DNA of 58,341 nt from contig JACPBG010000002.1 in NCBI GenBank assembly GCA_016180435.1, positions 1 to 58,341 of the forward strand, written 5' to 3'. Of the stretch, positions 5,682 to 52,385 are shown one piece after another (the first letter of the stretch is position 1; each line of letters starts with the position of its first letter). The position numbers were made by a program, and so were the translations under genes. The stretch is from Candidatus Sungiibacteriota bacterium (GTDB lineage Bacteria; Patescibacteriota; Minisyncoccia; Sungbacterales; HO2-52-23). The notes under the pieces were generated by a model, which was not told the DNA's origin, ran no database searches, and worked only from the letters and a program-made list of their open reading frames with translations.

Positions 5682-6032
5682 ATGCAATTTGCAGTTATTA
5701 AAACCGGCGGGAAACAATATCTGGTTGAACCCGGAAAAAAGCTAAAAATTGAGAAATTGGCCGCCCCCGCAGGGGGCGAGCCTCGCCATGGGCGGGACGC
5801 CCCGGATGGCGGAAAATTTGTATTTGATCAGGTTTTGCTGACGGCTGATGGAGATAACGTGGAAATCGGTAAACCGCTGGTTTCCGGCGCCAAAGTCGAG
5901 GGGAAAATATTAACGCAAGGCAGGGCGCGCAAAGTCATTGTCTTTAAATATCACCGTAAAACAAGATACCGCAAGAAAAAAGGGCATCGCCAGCATTTCA
6001 CGGAAGTGGAGATTACAAAAATACATAAATAA
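5682..6032 (+). CDS. rplU: 50S ribosomal protein L21, with in-frame GC-rich insertion
   Basis: MQFAVIKTGGKQYLVEPG start and VIVFKYHRKTRYRKKKGHRQ tail. Internal Met at 5682 chosen over ORF start 5664. Confidence 0.9.
   Translation: MQFAVIKTGGKQYLVEPGKKLKIEKLAAPAGGEPRHGRDAPDGGKFVFDQVLLTADGDNVEIGKPLVSGAKVEGKILTQGRARKVIVFKYHRKTRYRKKKGHRQHFTEVEITKIHK
5760..5812. repeat. GC-rich hairpin element (GGGCGAGCCTCGCC core) inside rplU
   Basis: Core 14-mer at 5774-5787, flanked by gccgccc / ggcggg; encodes AAPAGGEPRHGRDAPDG, absent from the L21 consensus. Confidence 0.8.
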
Positions 6033-23808: not shown

Positions 23809-23988
23809 AGCACATTTCCATATTTTGTAAGAGAAGCTATGCTAAAAGTAACTCCATATAAAATTTTCGTCAACCCCGTTAGAGAGAAACAAAGATTCTC
23901 ATTTATCTTCAAGTATATCTGCGTTTATAAAAACCCTGTATGTATAAATCACCGTGTTTGTTTCTTTTTAACGGGGTCAACAACTAAT

Positions 23989-24705
23989 ATGAATTATATT
24001 ATAGGAATTGATGAAGCGGGACGAGCCGCCCGCAAGCGGGCGAGCTTCGCCCATCACCAATTTATTATTGGTATAGATGAAGCGGGACGAGGGCCTTTGG
24101 CGGGACCGGTAGTTGTTGCGGGAATTAAAATAGAACTTAGAACTAAGAATTTAGAACTTAGAAATATACGGGATTCAAAAAAACTGACGGCGCGGCAGAG
24201 AGAAGAATGGTTTAGAATTTTAACCAATCATCCGAAAATAGAATATGCGGTGGCAAAGATTTATCCTAAGGTAATTGACCGGATAAATATCTCGCAGGCG
24301 GCGAATCTCGGGGTTTTACGGGTATGCCGTAAATTATCAACGAATAACGGTAAAACATCATCGAATAACGAATCTCGTACGAATATACGAATTACGAATT
24401 CCAGTATTCGTAAATTCGTAAAGGATTCGTTATTCGCTGATGCCATATTTTTGGACGGCGGTTTGAAACTTCCCCGGCGCATTTCTCATGAGGTGATTAT
24501 AAAAGGCGATGAAAAAATTCCGGCGATTTCCGCCGCATCTATTATTGCCAAAGTAACGCGGGATCGTTTAATGTTCCGTCTCCACAAAAAATATCCCAAG
24601 TACCGGTTTGATCTGCACAAAGGATACGGAACGAAACTTCATTATGTGCTGATACGGAGATTCGGGCATTCTGTCATCCACCGGAAGTCGTTTCGGCTCT
24701 CTTGA
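23989..24705 (+). CDS. rnhB: Ribonuclease HII with three in-frame insertions
   Basis: IIGIDEAGRGPLAGPVV catalytic N-terminus; C-terminal KGYGT motif; start at MNYIIG. Confidence 0.9.
   Translation: MNYIIGIDEAGRAARKRASFAHHQFIIGIDEAGRGPLAGPVVVAGIKIELRTKNLELRNIRDSKKLTARQREEWFRILTNHPKIEYAVAKIYPKVIDRINISQAANLGVLRVCRKLSTNNGKTSSNNESRTNIRITNSSIRKFVKDSLFADAIFLDGGLKLPRRISHEVIIKGDEKIPAISAASIIAKVTRDRLMFRLHKKYPKYRFDLHKGYGTKLHYVLIRRFGHSVIHRKSFRLS
24025..24063. repeat. GC-rich element (variant core GGGCGAGCTTCGCC) inside rnhB, flanked by 27-bp duplication
   Basis: Flanks 23998-24024 and 24064-24090 differ at 3 of 27 nt. Confidence 0.85.
24131..24165. repeat. TAGAACT heptamer repeats inside rnhB
   Basis: tagaacttagaactaagaatttagaacttagaaat, encodes IELRTKNLELRN. 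Confidence 0.8.
24362..24436. repeat. ACGAAT heptamer hairpin (75 nt) inside rnhB
   Basis: Outer 13 bp perfect: cgaataacgaatc / gattcgttattcg. Length is a multiple of 3; encodes NNESRTNIRITNSSIRKFVKDSLF. Confidence 0.85.
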
Positions 24706-29048: not shown

Positions 29049-29417
29049 ATGTCAAGGGCTGGGGTTATTTTGACTACATGTAAAAGTAAGTTAGAAGCCG
29101 AGCGGATCGGACGCGCGCTTTTGCAAAAACGGCTGGCAGCCTGTTGTATAACTATTCCGGAGGCGAGTTCTTTGTATCGGTGGCCGCCCCGATTTGAATC
29201 GGGGCGAGCCTCGCCTCGTTTACAACGAGGCGGGAAAGGGAAAATCAAAAGCGCCAAAGAAGTTATACTGTTGGTGAAAACTATGCGCGCTAAAGTCGGC
29301 GCGGCTGAACGAGAAATCAAAAAACTCCACTCCTATAAAATTCCGGCAATTATAACTTGGTCGGCAAGAAATGTTAATAAAATATACCTGCAATGGATGA
29401 AAAAGATGATAAAATAA
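29049..29417 (+). CDS. cutA: Divalent-cation tolerance protein CutA with in-frame GC-rich insertion
   Basis: ILTTCKS...LAACCITIP...SLYRW ... EVILLVKT ... HSYKIPAI CutA1 pattern. Confidence 0.8.
   Translation: MSRAGVILTTCKSKLEAERIGRALLQKRLAACCITIPEASSLYRWPPRFESGRASPRLQRGGKGKIKSAKEVILLVKTMRAKVGAAEREIKKLHSYKIPAIITWSARNVNKIYLQWMKKMIK
29184..29234. repeat. GC-rich element inside cutA
   Basis: ccccgatttgaatcgggg + GGGCGAGCCTCGCC (29202-29215) + cctcgtttacaacgagg; encodes PPRFESGRASPRLQRGG. Confidence 0.85.
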
Positions 29418-29948: not shown

Positions 29949-30007
29949 TCCCCACGAATTACGAATTTTGACGAATTGCGAAAGAGCGTCATTTTATCCA
30001 TGCACCA

Positions 30008-30065
30008 GCCGCCAGGGGCGAGCCTCGCCAAAGGCGAAAAGACCACGGGCTTGCCCGCGGAGCTT
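30008..30065. repeat. Intergenic copy of the GC-rich element
   Basis: Core GGGCGAGCCTCGCC at 30016-30029. Confidence 0.8.
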
Positions 30066-30123: not shown

Positions 30124-30690
30124 TTGATGCCTATGGCTGCGGAAGGGAAAGGAGAAATTCAAAAAAAGGTTTTATTGTGCTTATGGGGCGGATTGGCGTT
30201 GGGTCTTTCCGGTACGCCTAAGCGTTATTTCCGCATCCTAAAATCGATAGGCAAGGAATGGGAGGCAATTGAACGGGAATCGCTCTATAGAACGATTCGT
30301 TCGTTATATCAATCCCGCCTTATTACTTGTAAAGAAAATAAGGATGGCACTACTACCTTGATTTTAAGCCAAGCGGGAAAGGAAAAAGTAATGACGTATG
30401 AACTTGACTCTATGAAAATTAAAAAACCGGACCATTGGGATAGTAAATGGCGGCTTGTTTTTTTTGATATTCCCGAGTATATCAAGGGCGCCAGGGATGC
30501 GTTACGAACGCGACTTAAACAAATTGGCATGAAAGAATTGCAAAAGAGCGTGTTTGTTCATCCCTTTCCATGTGATGACGAGATAAACTTTCTAATTGAA
30601 CATTATCAGATTCGACCCCATGTACGTACGGCAGTAGTTGAATCTATTGATAACGAACTTCATCTTAAAGTAAAATTTAGGTTATTATAA
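30124..30690 (+). CDS. PaaX-like transcriptional regulator family protein
   Basis: N-terminal wHTH-like region, C-terminal WRLVFFDIPE...R..L...G...LQKSVFVHP pattern (PaaX/Cas2-like fold). Confidence 0.6.
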   Translation: MMPMAAEGKGEIQKKVLLCLWGGLALGLSGTPKRYFRILKSIGKEWEAIERESLYRTIRSLYQSRLITCKENKDGTTTLILSQAGKEKVMTYELDSMKIKKPDHWDSKWRLVFFDIPEYIKGARDALRTRLKQIGMKELQKSVFVHPFPCDDEINFLIEHYQIRPHVRTAVVESIDNELHLKVKFRLL

Positions 30691-47240: not shown

Positions 47241-47339
47241 GATCGCGGATAGACGCGGATTTTTACTTACGCGGATAAACGCGGATAATTAAATTTATCT
47301 GCGTGAATCAGCGTATTGATCCGCGTAGATCAGCGTTTC
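47241..47339 (+). repeat. GCGGATA heptamer-repeat hairpin abutting the 16S 5' end
   Basis: Left arm has cgcggat(a) x4, right arm has atcNgcg x4-5. Confidence 0.8.
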
Positions 47340-47408
47340 TAAATGAGGATTTGATCCTGGTCCAGGATGAACGCTGGCGGCGTGGATAAGGCATGCAAGT
47401 CAAACGGG

Positions 47409-47508
47409 CACGTGCTTCGCACGGAGAACTTAGAACTAAGAACTTAGAACCAAGCAGTTTCTAAGATCTAAGTTCTAAACGCTAAGTTCTGCGCGCGGAG
47501 TGCGCGCC
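47409..47508 (+). other. 16S insertion 1 (V1/helix 6): clamp hairpins + TAGAACT heptamer hairpin
   Basis: cgtgcttcgcacgga + heptamer hairpin 47425-47490 + gcgcgcggagtgcgcgc. Confidence 0.8.
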
Positions 47509-47591
47509 AGTGGCGAACGAGTTAGTAATACCCTGGTACGTACCCCAGAGACGGGAATAACTCCGCGAAAGCGGAGCTAATACCCGATAGT

Positions 47592-47862
47592 CCCAGCACA
47601 TATTTTTGGAAATAAATAAGCGCAGTGCGCCTGCGCTCTCATCAAGAAATACTTAGTTTAAGAGAAGGGTAATGATGACGGAAGTAATTAGTACACTTAT
47701 TAATGCACTGAAAAAAGCAGTTCTCTTTTCGCTTGTATTGAGAAACTCTCGAATGAACTTCATGGTATACCCTATGTAAACGTGAAATATCTATAACTAA
47801 TTATATATAATTATAAAAATCTGTCAAGTGTTGTTAATTTGATTCCAAAAATATGTGCTGGG
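47592..47862 (+). other. 16S insertion 2 (V2 region): 271-nt AT-rich intervening sequence
   Basis: Closed by a perfect 19-bp stem: cccagcacatatttttgga / tccaaaaatatgtgctggg. Confidence 0.8.
47653..47763 (-). CDS. Speculative 36-aa hydrophobic peptide ORF antisense to 16S insertion 2
   Basis: MKFIREFLNTSEKRTAFFSALISVLITSVIITLLLN; weak SD; may be chance. Confidence 0.15.
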   Translation of the reverse strand: MKFIREFLNTSEKRTAFFSALISVLITSVIITLLLN

Positions 47863-48111
47863 TAAATCACTTAGATTGGCTCTGGGAGCGGCCTAGGTCC
47901 TATCAGCTAGTTGGCGGGGTAATGGCCCACCAAGGCAATGACGGGTAGGGGGCGTGAGAGCGCGACCCCCAACGGCGACAATGAGATACGAGTCGCACAC
48001 CTACGGGTGGCAGCAGTCAAGAACATTCGACAATGGGCGAAAGCCTGATCGAGCGACGCCGCGTGCAGGATGAAGGCCTTCGGGTCGTAAACTGCTTTTT
48101 AAGGGGAGGAA

Positions 48112-48281
48112 GCCGTGCTTCGCACGGAATGTCTAATTCCTAATTCACCTAATTCCTAATAAAATGCCCAATAAAAAAATGTCTAATGTCCAAAAACAGC
48201 TTTTGGGCTTTGGCAATTTGATATTTTGAATTTTATTAGAAATTAGAAATTAGATGTTGGAAATTTCGCGCGGAGCGCGGA
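48112..48281 (+). other. 16S insertion 3 (V3 region): same clamps as insertion 1 + TAATTCC/TTAGAAA hairpin
   Basis: 15-mer cgtgcttcgcacgga at 48114-48128, identical to 47411-47425; 3' clamp cgcgcggagcgcgg. Confidence 0.8.
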
Positions 48282-48593
48282 TTGACTGTACCCTTAGAAT
48301 AAGGCGCTGCAAACCTCGTGCCAGCAGCCGCGGTAATACGAGGGCGCCAAGCGTTATCCGGATTTATTGGGCGTAAAGGGTCTCCAGGCGGTTTGATTAG
48401 TCGGGCGTTAAATCCCGCTGCCTAACGGCGGGGCTGCGTTCGAAACGGTCAAACTAGAGGGATGGAGAGGGGATGGGAACTCACGGTGTAGGGGTGAAAT
48501 CCGTTGATATCGTGGGGAACACCAAAGGCGAAGGCACATCCCTGGCCATTTCCTGACGCTCATGAGACGAAAGCGTGGGGAGAGAATAGGATT

Positions 48594-49390
48594 GATCGCT
48601 CGTTTGCATATTGTCCGCTCAAAAACTACGGGCTGGACAAATGGAGCCGAAAACAGAACGGGAGCCCTCCGGCAGAGCCGGTTTCCCTTGTTCTGTTTTC
48701 TCACCATTTGTTAACCAGCCCTCCGTTAATTTCGCGGAGCAATACGCAAACTCGCTTATTAGAGGGATAATAAGATGTTAAAAGTATTGTTTTTTTCGGC
48801 ACTGTTTATTGTATTCGTGGCAAAAACTAACACTAGCGAAAACAGTGTTGATATTATATTCTACAGTTTTATGTCAGGAGTTTCGTTTGTCTTAGTTTTT
48901 GTTAACATTTATTTGAAACTTAAAGCGAACCGGAAGGGTATCCGGTGAGAACAACTAGTCCCTCCGATGAAAATCGGAGATAAAATTCCACTGTATCGGT
49001 GAAAGGCCTACTGCGGAAACGCAGGGTTAACGCCGAGGCAACGCTTACACAATTTTCGAACGTTAATTACTAATTTTTAATTCGTAATTAGGAATTGGCA
49101 ATTGCGTAAGCAGAGTCCGTAGAGACTGAACGTGGAACCCAGCTCTTTGTTGAAGCAGGGCAACTTGTTTGCCCCTTTAGCAAAGAACTGGTGATGTCAC
49201 AGTCCGAACTATGCAGTAATGCATAGAGCTAATCAGAAATGCGTTAGCCGGCAGCAAGTTTTGGAATTCTGGATTTTTAAATTTCTGATTTGCTTGCCCC
49301 GTAGTGAACGTGCAACGTTCTACCATCGGGGTTTAGAAATTAGAAATTCGGATTTAGAAATTCCAAATTTGTTGCGAGCAACAAATTTGT
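48594..49390 (+). mobile_element. 16S insertion 4: about 0.8-kb putative intron in the 790 loop, no homing-endonuclease ORF
   Basis: Splits the universal AGGATT|AGATACCC. Boundaries can be drawn with U before the 5' splice site and G as the last inserted nt. Confidence 0.6.
48775..48948 (+). CDS. Speculative 57-aa two-TM peptide ORF inside insertion 4
   Basis: GAGGGA 8 nt upstream of ATG; MLKVLFFSALFIVFVAKT...VSFVLVFVNIYLKLKANRKGIR. Confidence 0.2.
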   Translation: MLKVLFFSALFIVFVAKTNTSENSVDIIFYSFMSGVSFVLVFVNIYLKLKANRKGIR

Positions 49391-49751
49391 AGATACCCTA
49401 GTATTCCACGCCCTAAACGTTGCGCGCTCGCTGTTCCGAGTATCGACCCTCGGAGTGGCTAAGCTTACGCGTTAAGCGCGCCGCCTGGGAAGTACGAGCG
49501 CAAGCTTAAAACTCAAAGGAATAGACGGGAGCTCGCACAAGCGGTGGACCATGTGGTTCAATTCGACGACAACCGAGGAACCTCACCAGGGTTTGAAATT
49601 CTAATGAAGTTCCGAAGAAATTCGGAATGTCTCACAAGGACATTAGAACAGGTGATGCACGGTCCTCGTCAGTTCGTGATGTGAATTGTTCCCTTAAGTG
49701 GGGTAACGAACGCAACCCCCGTGGTATGTTATATGTGTCATACCAGACTGC

Positions 49752-49936
49752 CCCCCTCCAAGCCCGAAGGGCTTGGAGGCACAGATGTTCACAGATTTCT
49801 AACGGATTTTCACAGATCACAGATTCACACGGAAACCTTAACAGGCTACATCCGTAATTATCCGTGATCTGTGGTAATCTGTGGAATAATCTGTGTTAAT
49901 CCGTGGAAAACTCGTCATTGCGGGTTTGGAGGGGGG
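49752..49936 (+). other. 16S insertion 5 (helix 40 region): GC hairpin + CACAGAT heptamer hairpin
   Basis: ctccaagccc-gaa-gggcttggag, then cacagat repeats paired with atctgtg repeats. Confidence 0.8.
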
Positions 49937-50067
49937 AGGAAGGCGGGGATGACGTGAGATCAGCGTGTCCCTTTGATATCCTGGGCTACACACGTGGTAC
50001 AATGGCGCGTACAATGGGTTGCAAAGCCGCGAGGCGAAGCTAATCCCATAAAACGCGCCCCAGTTCA

Positions 50068-50098
<31 letters not shown>

Positions 50099-50159
50099 AG
50101 GAATCGCTAGTAAACGCGGATCAGCTACGCCGCGTTGAATACGTTCTCGAGCTTTGTAC

Positions 50160-51087
50160 TCGGGTCGCTATGCGGTTCAATAAGCGAGCAGGTTTAAATC
50201 CTGCCAAGAAAATGCAGTTTTTTGAAGCGAAATCGCAGTCCTTCGAGGGGCGACCCTCAGGATGAAGGGCGAAAGTAGCAGCTGCCAGCTTGAATATTCA
50301 TCGAGGCGCGATACAGGCGGTGACCCTGCGAGTACATGGGGAAACCACTGCATAAAATGCCTTATCGCGTATACCGAATATCGAGACGGCAGAGAACCGT
50401 TTATTGGGTTACCATAGGAGATCTTGCATAATTCTCGTAGTATATCTATACTCGAGATAGGAACGTGGATAACTTCGTTCCAATGTTATGCAAGAAGTCA
50501 GCAGAGTTCGTAGTAGCAAGAGTGATTCTAGATGCCGCAATCCGCGGCTTCGAGCGCCTCTTGCGAAGGAACAAATTCAGGCAAAAAAACTTCATCCGCA
50601 GTATATTGCGGGATTCATTGATGGCGAGGGTTCGTTCGTCGTGAGTTTCGGGCGCCATAAAACGCTCAAGCGCGGCATTGAAATCCGCGTTGAATTCACC
50701 ATCGAACTTCGCGCCGACGACAGAGAAATTCTTTATCGGATATTAAAAACCATCGGATGCGGAAAAATTTATGACGCATCATATGAACGATACGGATGGT
50801 ATCCGCATGTCAAATATAAAATCACAAGTACCAAGGATATGGAAAAATATCTGATTCCGTTTCTGGATAAAACGCCGTTACAGGCCAAGAAGCGAAAAGT
50901 ATATAGGGTATTTCGTGAAATTGTTTTGATGGTGCGGAGAAAAGAGCATTTGACCGATAAAGGATTTAAAAAGATCTTCAGATTGCGCAACGAATATCGT
51001 AAATACGGAAAGAAGCGCCTGAAAACCGCCAGGGTACGGGAAAACCGTTCGCCCGGTGGTGTGAGACAATAAGTAAAATTGATCTTA
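50160..51087 (+). mobile_element. 16S insertion 6a: putative intron with LAGLIDADG ORF
   Basis: Begins right after conserved CTTTGTAC; ORF stop is 15 nt before ATACCGCC (51088-51095). Confidence 0.65.
50488..51072 (+). CDS. LAGLIDADG homing endonuclease (single-motif type)
   Basis: YIAGFIDGEGSF motif, 194 aa, inside 16S. Confidence 0.9.
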   Translation: MQEVSRVRSSKSDSRCRNPRLRAPLAKEQIQAKKLHPQYIAGFIDGEGSFVVSFGRHKTLKRGIEIRVEFTIELRADDREILYRILKTIGCGKIYDASYERYGWYPHVKYKITSTKDMEKYLIPFLDKTPLQAKKRKVYRVFREIVLMVRRKEHLTDKGFKKIFRLRNEYRKYGKKRLKTARVRENRSPGGVRQ

Positions 51088-51095
51088 ATACCGCC

Positions 51096-52008
51096 AATTA
51101 ATAAAGTGCCCGGCAGCTTAATTGACTAGTTGGTTAAAGTCCAACCTCCCATTGCATATGGGACGTAGCCAAAAAAATAGCAGTCCACTATCCGTAAGGT
51201 TGTGGATAAAGGGCTTGAGGCAAATGGCAGCCTATGATACGATTAGAATATTGAACGATCGCCGCGGGCGGTCAGCGGGAAGTTCAATTATTTCCATCAT
51301 AGGATGCCGGGAATAGTTAATTAAGTGACCCGGGGAGATCCTAAACAGTCGAGTCATAATACTCGTTTAGGAAGTCAGCTGGCGTCATAGTACCGAGCAC
51401 TCAACCTGCACTACGCTCGTTCTGCGTTATGCGCAGTGCAAGTTGAGTGCTCGGGAAGGAGCCAACCAAAATTATGCTATCTCCTGATTATATTGTTGGA
51501 TTGACTGACGGTGAAGGTAGCTTTACCGCATATATACGGCCACCCAAGAAAGAGCATGGTTCTAAAAATTATCGGATTGAATGTCATTATTACATAAAAC
51601 TGCGTGAAGACGACCGATCACTTTTAGAAAATGTCAAAAATTTCTTTAGAACAGGACGGGTGGTATTTCAGCGGGAAAACCGGACGAATCATCATCATAT
51701 GTATCGATTTGAGGTTACGAACTTGCATGATCTGCAAAATTTAATAATTCCTTTTTTTGAAAAACATAAACTTCAAAGCAAGCGAATTAAAGATTTTGAA
51801 TTATTCAAGAAGATCGTTAAAGCGGTACTGAATAAAGAACATCAAACCGAAAATGGATTGCGAAAGATTCAACAATGGAAAAAGAAGATGCATCAATATA
51901 TGGGCTCGCCGAATACGGGAAACCCGTACGTTCGGTCTCGATATAGAAAGTCGAGGGTTCGATTAAAGAATCGGACTGGAAACGGGAAATAGACTCAATT
52001 ATCCCAAT
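51096..52008 (+). mobile_element. 16S insertion 6b: second putative intron with LAGLIDADG ORF
   Basis: ORF stop is 17 nt before conserved CCGTCACG resumes at 52009. Confidence 0.65.
51447..51992 (+). CDS. LAGLIDADG homing endonuclease (single-motif type)
   Basis: YIVGLTDGEGSF motif, 181 aa, inside 16S. Confidence 0.9.
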   Translation: MLGKEPTKIMLSPDYIVGLTDGEGSFTAYIRPPKKEHGSKNYRIECHYYIKLREDDRSLLENVKNFFRTGRVVFQRENRTNHHHMYRFEVTNLHDLQNLIIPFFEKHKLQSKRIKDFELFKKIVKAVLNKEHQTENGLRKIQQWKKKMHQYMGSPNTGNPYVRSRYRKSRVRLKNRTGNGK

Positions 52009-52330
52009 CCGTCACGTCAAGGAAGCCGGGAGTAGGTGAAGGCTGTCGCAAGACAGTTCAATCTAAACTCGGTGACAGGGACGAAGTCGTAACAAGGCAT
52101 CCCTAGCGGAAGCTGGGGATGGAACAATCTTTTTAGGGTTATATTCGAGCAAAGCATCAAGAAATCCGGATAAAACCGGATACGCTTGGAGAAGGCCCTC
52201 CGTTCTAACAAGAATGCGGTTTTCTCTCGCATTTGCTCACTACCTTAGGTTGATACCGCAATTTTTTGCGGGAATAAGTGTTGATCTCTAACTTTCAAAT
52301 GGAGATCGTGCGGATCCGTCGCTAACGGAT

Positions 52331-52385
52331 CATGTCGGCCGCCCAGTTTTATTGGGCGAGCCTCGCCCCGCAAGGGGCGGGAACA
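52331..52385. repeat. Intergenic copy of the GC-rich element downstream of 16S
   Basis: Core GGGCGAGCCTCGCC at 52354-52367, flanked by gccgccc / ggggcggg. Confidence 0.8.

Follow-up and report, generated by a model that had tools for sequence, protein, structure and literature searches.

Rickettsia palindromic elements (RPEs) are dispersed palindromes that lie in frame in unrelated, often essential genes and are translated there as an extra peptide compatible with the fold (PMC10969869). Mitochondrial GC clusters, double-hairpin elements and repetitive hairpin-forming elements are short GC-rich hairpins in an AT-richer genome; they occupy spacers, rRNA regions and occasionally protein genes, are kept in transcripts, avoid structurally important parts of genes and move by unknown means (PMC2800124). 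Here we analysed a stretch of 58,341 nt from Candidatus Sungiibacteriota bacterium (assembly GCA_016180435.1, contig JACPBG010000002.1, positions 1 to 58,341; hereafter the window) and found that a GC-rich double-hairpin element sits in frame in rnhB, the gene for RNase HII, between two copies of the codons for the catalytic strand beta1. This insert belongs to a dispersed repeat family that tolerates being translated. The element works like an RPE but is not a member of that family. As with the RPEs, it forms a dispersed palindromic family in one genome, it is found in frame in unrelated genes, and empty orthologs exist. RPEs, however, measure about 100-150 bp, share the AT-richness of their host and code in a single frame for a conserved peptide, whereas the element described here is 36-45 nt long, GC-rich in a genome of 45% GC and read in three frames. 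Moreover, unlike the RPEs, it is coupled in one gene to a duplication of host coding sequence, and the two have no known sequence relationship. GC clusters, for their part, are organellar, whereas the present element belongs to a bacterium of the candidate phyla radiation (CPR) type, has most of its copies in protein genes and has one of them in an active-site motif together with a compensating duplication.

An earlier reading of this DNA, made from the letters alone (the sequence-only reading), had described a duplication around a GC-rich insert in rnhB, and the coordinates and the three synonymous differences that it gave are correct. The features of the gene on which the following text relies are these:

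23989-24705, + strand: rnhB (RNase HII) open reading frame (ORF), 238 aa; the catalytic domain starts from residue 24-27, which is copy 2
23998-24024, + strand: copy 1 of the beta1-strand codons (IIGIDEAGR), ATT ATA GGA ATT GAT GAA GCG GGA CGA, contiguous with the native N-terminal tail
24010-24025, + strand: 16-nt stretch GATGAAGCGGGACGAG, identical to 24076-24091
24018-24052, + strand: conserved stem-loop, in which an outer stem of the copy 1 Ala-Gly-Arg codons (GGGACGAGC) paired with GCTTCGCCC encloses an inner hairpin
24025-24052, + strand: GC-rich double-hairpin element, with the 5' block GCCGCCC at 24025-24031, the inner hairpin CGCCCG-CAAG-CGGGCG at 24027-24042 and the palindrome core GGGCGAGCTTCGCCC at 24038-24052
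24053-24063, + strand: variable 3' linker ATCACCAATTT, encoding ..HHQF
24064-24090, + strand: copy 2, the catalytic beta1 strand, ATT ATT GGT ATA GAT GAA GCG GGA CGA, followed by GPLAGP

The start codon is the ATG at 23989, not 23990, and the ORF runs in the order MNYIIGIDEAGR-AARKRASFAHHQF-IIGIDEAGRGPLAG. Its product is an RNase HII by Pfam (PF01351, E = 5e-34, 118 bits against a cut-off of 25.8, residues 27-236, with the DEAGRG motif included), and alignments to RNase HII structures in the PDB begin at residues 24-26 (best E = 8e-27). Since both sets of alignments start at copy 2, copy 1 and the insert constitute an N-terminal extension. A repeat search of the window extended the direct repeat to 29 nt (23997-24025 and 24063-24091, 90% identity, spacing 66), and a flanking repeat of equal quality appeared in none of 200 shuffles of the flanks. 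The insert between the copies (24025-24063) is 39 nt long and has 67% GC, against 41% in its flanks. Every one of the three differences between copy 1 and copy 2 (ATA/ATT, GGA/GGT and ATT/ATA) is synonymous; by site counts, in which 21 of 81 possible changes are synonymous, this outcome has a P of about 0.017, which alone is weak but is strongly reinforced by the comparison among genomes given below.

The core of the element, GGGCGAGCYTCGCCC, was found at six sites in the window, where 0.25 would be expected, and relaxing the search to three mismatches added none. All copies have a common tripartite layout: GCCGCCC is followed after a few bases by the palindrome GGGCGAG-C-CTCGCCC and this, again after a few bases, by GGGCGGGA. 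The sequence can be folded into a single long hairpin or a pair of short ones, and in rnhB the element measures about 28-40 nt. Four of the six copies lie in frame within ORFs, namely those of bL21, an 843-aa membrane protein, RNase HII and a CutA-like protein. Repetitive extragenic palindromes (REPs) and bacterial interspersed mosaic elements (BIMEs) are also short dispersed palindromes, but REPs are extragenic and linked to REP-associated tyrosine transposases (RAYTs). The five copies outside rnhB are:

5757-5798, + strand: copy in the gene for ribosomal protein bL21, a 36-nt in-frame insert AAPAGGEPRHGR that is absent from the ortholog at locus L090
7940-7985, + strand: copy in the ORF of the 843-aa membrane protein, in frame (..RRPDGRASLMAGR..)
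29180-29232, + strand: copy in the CutA-like gene, in frame; native TGG CCG CCC (WPP) forms the 5' block, and the insert is absent from the L084 ortholog
30003-30040, + strand: intergenic copy, upstream of a 188-aa ORF at 30124-30690
52336-52385, + strand: copy with a perfect core in the spacer of the rRNA operon, which begins some 220 nt beyond where the 16S rRNA ends

Filled and empty versions of orthologous sites were found in both directions. The bL21 and CutA sites are filled in the window and empty in relatives, and DnaE is filled in the complete Sungiibacteriota genome L084 (CP066690.1, 6520-6562, minus strand), where a full tripartite copy forms a 36-nt, 12-aa in-frame insert AAREGEPRPEGR that is missing from five orthologs, the window's included. 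Each of these sites has native GC-rich sequence that partly matches the element and merges with it: the element lies directly 5' of GAY GCN in DnaE and bL21, and in CutA the native TGG CCR CCC supplies the 5' block. Wherever the element lies in a gene, the sense strand is the one that carries the central C of the palindrome. We also observed that in DnaE the first 12 nt of the insert are similar to the next 12 native nt after it (xARE / DARE), with a like pattern in bL21 (xAPx / DAPD). Flanking repeats were sought at six copies outside rnhB (the five in the window and that in L084 DnaE), and none was significant (p = 0.2-0.7). Because these other copies have no flanking repeat, the repeat in rnhB is not a target-site duplication, and the sequence-only reading was right to set it apart from those that transposons usually leave; REPs, too, come without target-site duplication. 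No Rfam family matches the GC hairpin at the gathering score, the sole hits being sub-threshold ones of generic hairpins (miRNA precursors) to two other palindromes, and the literature that we searched holds no report of the core sequence or of this architecture of rnhB.

The arrangement in rnhB, a module made of the native strand copy, the element and a second strand copy, is seen in 28 of the 120 closest RNase HII proteins, which are from Parcubacteria and 53-68% identical; an extra IIGIDEAGR-type copy lies upstream of the catalytic one in 26, remnants are left in 2, and the proteins P0003 and P0007 have three strand copies. A profile search of a representative library brought in a second clade with the catalytic motif GIDEVGRG, in which the extra copies likewise read GIDEVGR and triplications occur again. 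A shorter query, the 47-aa N-terminus alone, gave E-values too weak, at the size of the database searched, to be informative. Among the matches listed by a scan of a genome collection most were distant RNase HII genes, and L004 was the one of use. The sequence-only reading had proposed a comparison of rnhB in related genomes for empty sites and variants, and long and short forms were both found. On a neighbour-joining tree the state of duplication is scattered: the 28 carriers account for 22 changes, and 25 would be expected at random.

Carrier DNA was obtained from 14 genomes, including the closed genome CP066690.1 (L084), a metagenome-assembled genome of Ryanbacteria and several metagenome contigs retrieved with a DNA pattern blind to frame. 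Across these rnhB carriers 24-81 nt separate the strand copies, and the second copy, downstream of the element, spans in every case seen the 27-30 nt that encode beta1 (Y/F-IIGIDEAGR). The peptides of the linker fall into three classes (AARKRASFA, ..GRASP.. and ..GEPRP..), which arise from one DNA core through reading in three frames. The 5' block overlaps the Gly-Arg codons of copy 1 in L081 and L084, and in L093 the palindrome is built directly on the GGG CGA G of copy 1; the native Ala-Gly-Arg-Gly codons therefore resemble half of the palindrome. In the window gene the heptamer GCGGGAC occurs three times, at 24016-24022 and 24082-24088 (the EAGR codons of both copies) and at 24100-24106 (the LAGP codons, 12 nt after copy 2), which means that the native gene itself bears a short GC-rich direct repeat resembling the 3' block of the element. 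Some rnhB linkers, at L089 (1180-1420) and L090 (10001-10130), measure 72-81 nt and look like two tandem element cores (e.g. GCGGGCGAGCCTCCCGC ... GAGGCTCGCCTC), which suggests nested or repeated insertions of the element within one unit.

All five distinct rnhB loci from the frame-blind search are in frame and free of stops, as the sequence-only reading had held for the 66-nt addition in the window. In 11 of 13 genomes there is no in-frame ATG, GTG or TTG between the copies, and the sole such starts lie upstream of copy 1. An internal start downstream of the insert, which would leave copy 1 untranslated and which the same reading had named as the case that would speak against it, was rejected on the lack of a start codon in these 11 genomes. 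With an alignment of 120 sequences AlphaFold2 predicts a confident domain, with a mean predicted local distance difference test (pLDDT) of 82, whose strand beta1 comprises residues 25-32, that is, copy 2. Residues 1-20 are predicted as coil with no secondary structure (pLDDT about 52), and a run with a shallower alignment agrees. The linker is basic with an aromatic residue at its end, like the native N-terminal tails of the short forms. On the predicted model, copy 1 and the element would be translated as a flexible tail.

At the level of nucleic acid, the 3' codons of copy 1 and the insert fold together much better than shuffled sequences in 14 of 15 units (z = -2.6 to -4.6). A helix of 14 pairs, which joins the Ala-Gly-Arg codons to the 3' half of the insert, is 91% paired over an alignment of ten genomes, against 38-49% in slid controls, and at one of its pairs six sequences have G-U, which hints weakly that the RNA of the sense strand matters. 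The pairing between copy 1 and the linker that the window shows as an outer helix is 37% paired across genomes and thus is not conserved. No terminator-like site was found, and an intrinsic terminator or attenuator was rejected on that ground.

The two strand copies have diverged almost entirely at synonymous sites. Across 15 within-genome pairs of adjacent copies we counted 85 synonymous differences over 105 sites (proportion of synonymous differences, pS = 0.81, which is saturated) and 18 nonsynonymous differences over 300 sites (pN = 0.06), a pN/pS of 0.07. Since nonsynonymous sites outnumber synonymous ones 3:1, this synonymous excess is independent of the age of the duplication, and since the IIGID codons alone, which lie outside the strong stem, give the same result (pS 1.0, pN 0.08, ratio 0.08), the hairpin does not explain it. 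The copies of L084, L094 and L098 are separated by 7-8 synonymous differences and no nonsynonymous one. In an orthologous pair, L086 and L087 (86% identical, with an obviously orthologous module and a gene-wide pS of 0.26), copy 1 has four synonymous changes and one nonsynonymous change, where 5.1 nonsynonymous changes would be expected under neutrality (P = 0.019), and the 36 nt of the insert contain 4 differences against 9.4 expected (P = 0.025). The overall pS and pN, the IIGID codons and the L086/L087 pair all sustain the suggestion of the sequence-only reading that both copies are held at the level of the peptide.

Our best guess is that the peptide of copy 1 is conserved by direct selection on the translated tail, which is favoured by the constraint in L086/L087 and by the exclusively synonymous divergence in L084, L094 and L098. 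The extra copies are close to the catalytic copies in conservation (D in 40 of 40, G in 38 and R in 37, figures somewhat inflated by the regular expression used to detect them), and the residue at the Ala/Val position agrees with that of the catalytic copy in 38 of 45 cases. Identity at third codon positions among five genomes with the same class of insert is 0.89 in the insert and 0.43 in copy 1. Where residues are identical between genomes, they use the same codon at a fraction of 0.34 in copy 1 and 0.56 in the catalytic copy; the next nine codons give 0.28, the gene as a whole gives 0.41, and codon usage alone would give about 0.35 by a rough estimate. An extra strand that is kept without a predicted structural role may indicate a function of the N-terminal tail of RNase HII, or may be a marker of rapid gain and loss.

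The module is also a natural, reversible in-frame indel of which both states are found in the wild. One cluster at 90% identity holds proteins of 223 aa and 202 aa that differ by exactly the linker and one copy, on two haplotype backgrounds. In the long allele L101 the copies share a perfect 16-nt run, GATGAGGTCGGGCGGG, but 5 of 12 positions differ between their 5' halves. L102 and L103, which are short alleles, equal L101 minus 63 nt within this run; they keep the 5' half of copy 1 and differ at 3 of 609 other positions, and the population of the three is at least 99% identical. Deletion is here the likelier direction, because a fresh duplication would not make diverged 5' halves. That recombination between the repeats would restore an uninterrupted gene had been supposed in the sequence-only reading, and the coexistence of long and short alleles that differ by exactly 63 nt agrees with it. 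Further long and short pairs with shared N-terminal tails are P0003/P0097 (89% identical) and P0058/P0092 (75%), and in three long/short pairs the short form retains copy 1. The single copy of P0097 has the Val of copy 1 of P0003, and its nucleotide sequence is mosaic-like, corresponding to copy 1 in the 5' part and to copy 3 in the 3' part.

In 12 of 16 copy pairs no identical run is longer than 8 nt; the other four, the window among them, keep 15-18 identical bases, so the allele of the window is of the excision-prone kind. Its 16-nt identity between 24010-24025 and 24076-24091 is the likely substrate for slippage or recombination that would delete 66 nt. A similar logic is known from the integration of phages and integrative and conjugative elements (ICEs) into tRNA genes, where a duplicated gene segment restores the target and direct repeats allow excision. 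Those elements, however, are kilobases long and have an integrase and att sites, whereas the unit in rnhB is about 60-70 nt long, has no enzyme, stays in the ORF and is translated; with a gap of just 24-81 nt, neither an integrase gene nor a kilobase-scale element lies between the direct repeats.

We hypothesise, and hold it to be probable, that a translated double-hairpin repeat lies at a native half-site inside the DEAGR|G motif of rnhB, that the duplicated strand keeps the enzyme intact, and that the module is gained, and lost by slippage. The element sits right after the Arg codon of this catalytic motif, where native codons (GCN GGG CGA G) resemble half of the palindrome and form the outer stem of the hairpin. 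Alone, the insert would split the active-site motif; with a second copy of beta1 following the element, the domain from copy 2 onward is intact. Translation would proceed from the native ATG through copy 1 and the element, giving a flexible, basic N-terminal tail. Where the copies keep about 16 identical bases, as in the window, slippage or recombination could delete exactly one unit, upon which copy 1 would become the catalytic strand, and arrays that have diverged at nearly every synonymous site should resist such deletion. The data show that the insert belongs to the repeat family, lies in frame and forms a conserved hairpin, that the module is distributed widely but in patches, that long and short alleles occur in nature and that synonymous differences exceed nonsynonymous ones. 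The preference of the element for its target, the first origin of the duplication and the reason for the conservation of the copy 1 peptide are the parts of this account that we infer. The inferences of the sequence-only reading hold within it; what that reading missed is that the insert is dispersed, that the module is widespread and at times triplicated, that native codons take part in the hairpin, and that a mobile unit is a rival explanation.

Several observations weigh against this hypothesis. AlphaFold2 predicts neither structure nor contact for copy 1, so that the constraint on its peptide has no predicted role. The evidence for excision comes from a related lineage and not from that of the window. 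The extra copies were detected with a permissive regular expression, which biases the estimates of conservation upward, yet all five frame-blind loci keep a recognisable copy 1. The catalytic copies of long forms share more codons (0.56) than the single copies of short forms (0.41), which a plain vertical model does not predict. The neighbour-joining tree behind the scattered distribution is poorly resolved at 55-65% identity. The helix shows double changes at two pairs, with little covariation, so that support for the hairpin comes mainly from conservation. Finally, no mechanism has been demonstrated for making the duplication, and the element makes none at its other sites.

In the main rival reading, the element and the strand copy downstream of it would form a mobile unit, a self-healing cassette that recombination with another long allele, or repair templated by one, would place in rnhB behind the Arg codon. 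Copy 1 would then be the displaced native strand, starting to decay, and its synonymous differences from copy 2 would reflect separate lineages with no selection on copy 1. We regard both statements as possible but doubtful, and we give the same low credence to their fuller form, in which a cassette of about 66 nt colonises the active-site motif of an essential enzyme by bringing its own nine-residue strand, spreads between rnhB genes and is shed by slippage, or in which, as a variant, the extra strand that is retained acts in the protein, e.g. by serving as an alternative beta1. Such a cassette would be the smallest known target-restoring mobile insertion, and one without an enzyme of its own. 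It is compatible with copy 1 being contiguous with the native N-terminal tail, and with short relatives carrying the copy 1 version, as in P0003, where Val stands in copy 1 but Ala in copies 2 and 3, the short relative P0097 having Val. The block conserved at the nucleotide level is exactly the insert and copy 2 (0.89 and 0.56), with saturated flanks on both sides (0.34 and 0.28); different classes of element occur within the array of one gene (L081 and L089); about 30% of the extra copies, counted from the sequences, carry substitutions never found in catalytic copies (e.g. E to K, A to S/T); and the distribution is patchy. On the other hand, copy 1 of L086/L087 has been constrained after the insertion (P = 0.019), and similarity of the catalytic copy still correlates with that of the host (rho = 0.39); a decoupling of the catalytic copy from the host phylogeny was not found. 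In L004, moreover, copy 2 is nearly identical to the others while the element is strongly diverged, which argues against recent joint travel, and there is no plausible route known for moving 66 nt between genes with saturated flanks, nor is any enzyme implicated.

Much less probable, indeed very unlikely, is a programmed translational bypass of the type of T4 gene 60 or the mitochondrial byp elements of Magnusiomyces, with take-off at a codon of copy 1 and landing on the matching codon of copy 2, to give an enzyme of native length in which copy 1 is catalytic, so that both copies would be needed. In those systems, as in rnhB, a GC-rich hairpin lies in a coding sequence with identical codons on either side. 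The strong, conserved hairpin here starts at the Ala-Gly-Arg codons of copy 1, both copies are conserved as peptide, and most genomes have a gap of 57-72 nt, similar in magnitude to the 50 nt of T4 gene 60. Matched codons beside a hairpin are, however, a trivial consequence of the duplicated strand. Bypassed gaps are non-coding (with stops or in the wrong frame), whereas the insert in rnhB is in frame and free of stops in every genome, which a bypass would not require; neither a stop nor a rare codon comes after the putative take-off site, the same element is plainly translated in bL21, DnaE and CutA without matching flanking codons, and the Gly and Arg codons of the two copies often need different tRNAs (e.g. 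GGC CGC versus GGG CGG in L084). The direct repeat around a palindromic insert that is itself a dispersed repeat could also recall a transposon or miniature inverted-repeat transposable element (MITE) with an unusually long, decaying target-site duplication. MITEs have terminal inverted repeats and a fixed short target-site duplication, whereas here rnhB alone has a repeat, of 27-30 nt, and the six other copies examined have none. In addition, the differences between the copies are overwhelmingly synonymous and the boundaries of the repeat match a structural unit of the protein. No transposase was identified in the 58 kb of the window, and no search aimed at transposases was made. We give this insertion less credence still than a bypass, and the least of all to an artefact of assembly or strain mixing that joined two rnhB alleles, for which it speaks that the window probably derives from a metagenome assembly and that the copies differ as alleles would. 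The same architecture is present in at least 14 independent assemblies, among them the closed CP066690.1 (L084), as well as in clusters seen on as many as 14 contigs; we consider the target-site duplication and the assembly artefact effectively excluded.

Other origins were considered and rejected. Compared by eye with the sequence after copy 2, the insert has no obvious similarity to it of the sort that a tandem 66-nt duplication with subsequent divergence of its second half would leave, and complementarity of the insert to copy 1, as in a fold-back origin from its reverse complement, is limited to the short stem partner of the Ala-Gly-Arg codons. Read as a small CRISPR-like array, the locus would have a 29-nt repeat that is coding and a 37-nt spacer that is conserved across genomes. 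The template and variable repeats of diversity-generating retroelements do not fit differences that are not adenine-specific and a repeat of only 27 nt. Six matches to viral contigs are chance matches in DNA of 55-74% GC and do not indicate a viral origin. Concerted evolution by frequent gene conversion is contradicted by synonymous saturation in 12 of 16 pairs, the other 4 having homogenised 3' halves. Indirect selection on copy 1 through the viability of the excision product cannot, by population-genetic reasoning, act among alleles that still carry the module.

Taken with the copies in other genes, the rnhB module suggests a wider phenomenon. Genomes of CPR bacteria and Parcubacteria appear to contain a GC-rich double-hairpin repeat of very small size, which lies in frame in core genes (those of bL21, DnaE, CutA and RNase HII) as well as in an rRNA spacer. 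This would amount to the RPE phenomenon in another lineage and with elements one third as long, and it has a bearing on the many insertions in CPR proteins that lack an explanation. In rnhB an insertion in an active-site motif is tolerated by duplicating the displaced strand. For annotation, an extra GIDEAGR motif and a variable N-terminus in RNase HII are not to be taken for frameshifts or mis-assemblies.

Several further features of the locus and its relatives were observed. A second, unrelated in-frame hairpin insert lies in the window rnhB at 24356-24442. This AT-rich palindrome, whose 37-nt arms are 86% complementary and separated by 13 nt, encodes ..SSNNESRTNIRITNSSIRKFVKDSLFAD.., falls in a region of low AlphaFold2 confidence (residues 123-149) and is missing from most homologs; its matches in Rfam are sub-threshold and to generic hairpins (miRNA precursors) only. 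Within the same gene a tandem 21-nt repeat, TAGAACTTAGAACTA / TAGAACTTAGAAATA, at 24131-24166 encodes ELRTKNLELR and is common to the closest short-form relative, P0002. Between a protease-like gene and rnhB, an inverted repeat at 23873-23977 (34-nt arms, 79% complementary, 37 nt apart) ends 12 nt before the rnhB start codon; it has no Rfam match and may be a MITE-like element or a structured 5' leader.

Downstream of rnhB, the genes rpmF, nusB and rnc (RNase III) follow on the same strand at loci L081, L084, L086, L088 and L090. Such a transcript would start with a long hairpin and encode RNase III as well, so that gene order makes autoregulation by RNase III a possibility. The short-form RNase HII P0081 has an N-terminal extension that contains ..FVIPAKAGIQLDPSFRWDD.., a peptide which may be like the translations of another kind of GC-rich repeat; if so, other repeat families may land at the 5' ends of rnhB too. 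Upstream of the spacer copy of the element, the 16S rRNA gene of the window (47339-52134) is interrupted by large insertions, with Rfam model positions 1384-1533 at 52000-52134. These insertions include a fragment of a group II intron (D1-D4, 50458-50571) and an ORF of the LAGLIDADG type (51447-51992), and such insertions are typical of the rRNA genes of CPR bacteria.

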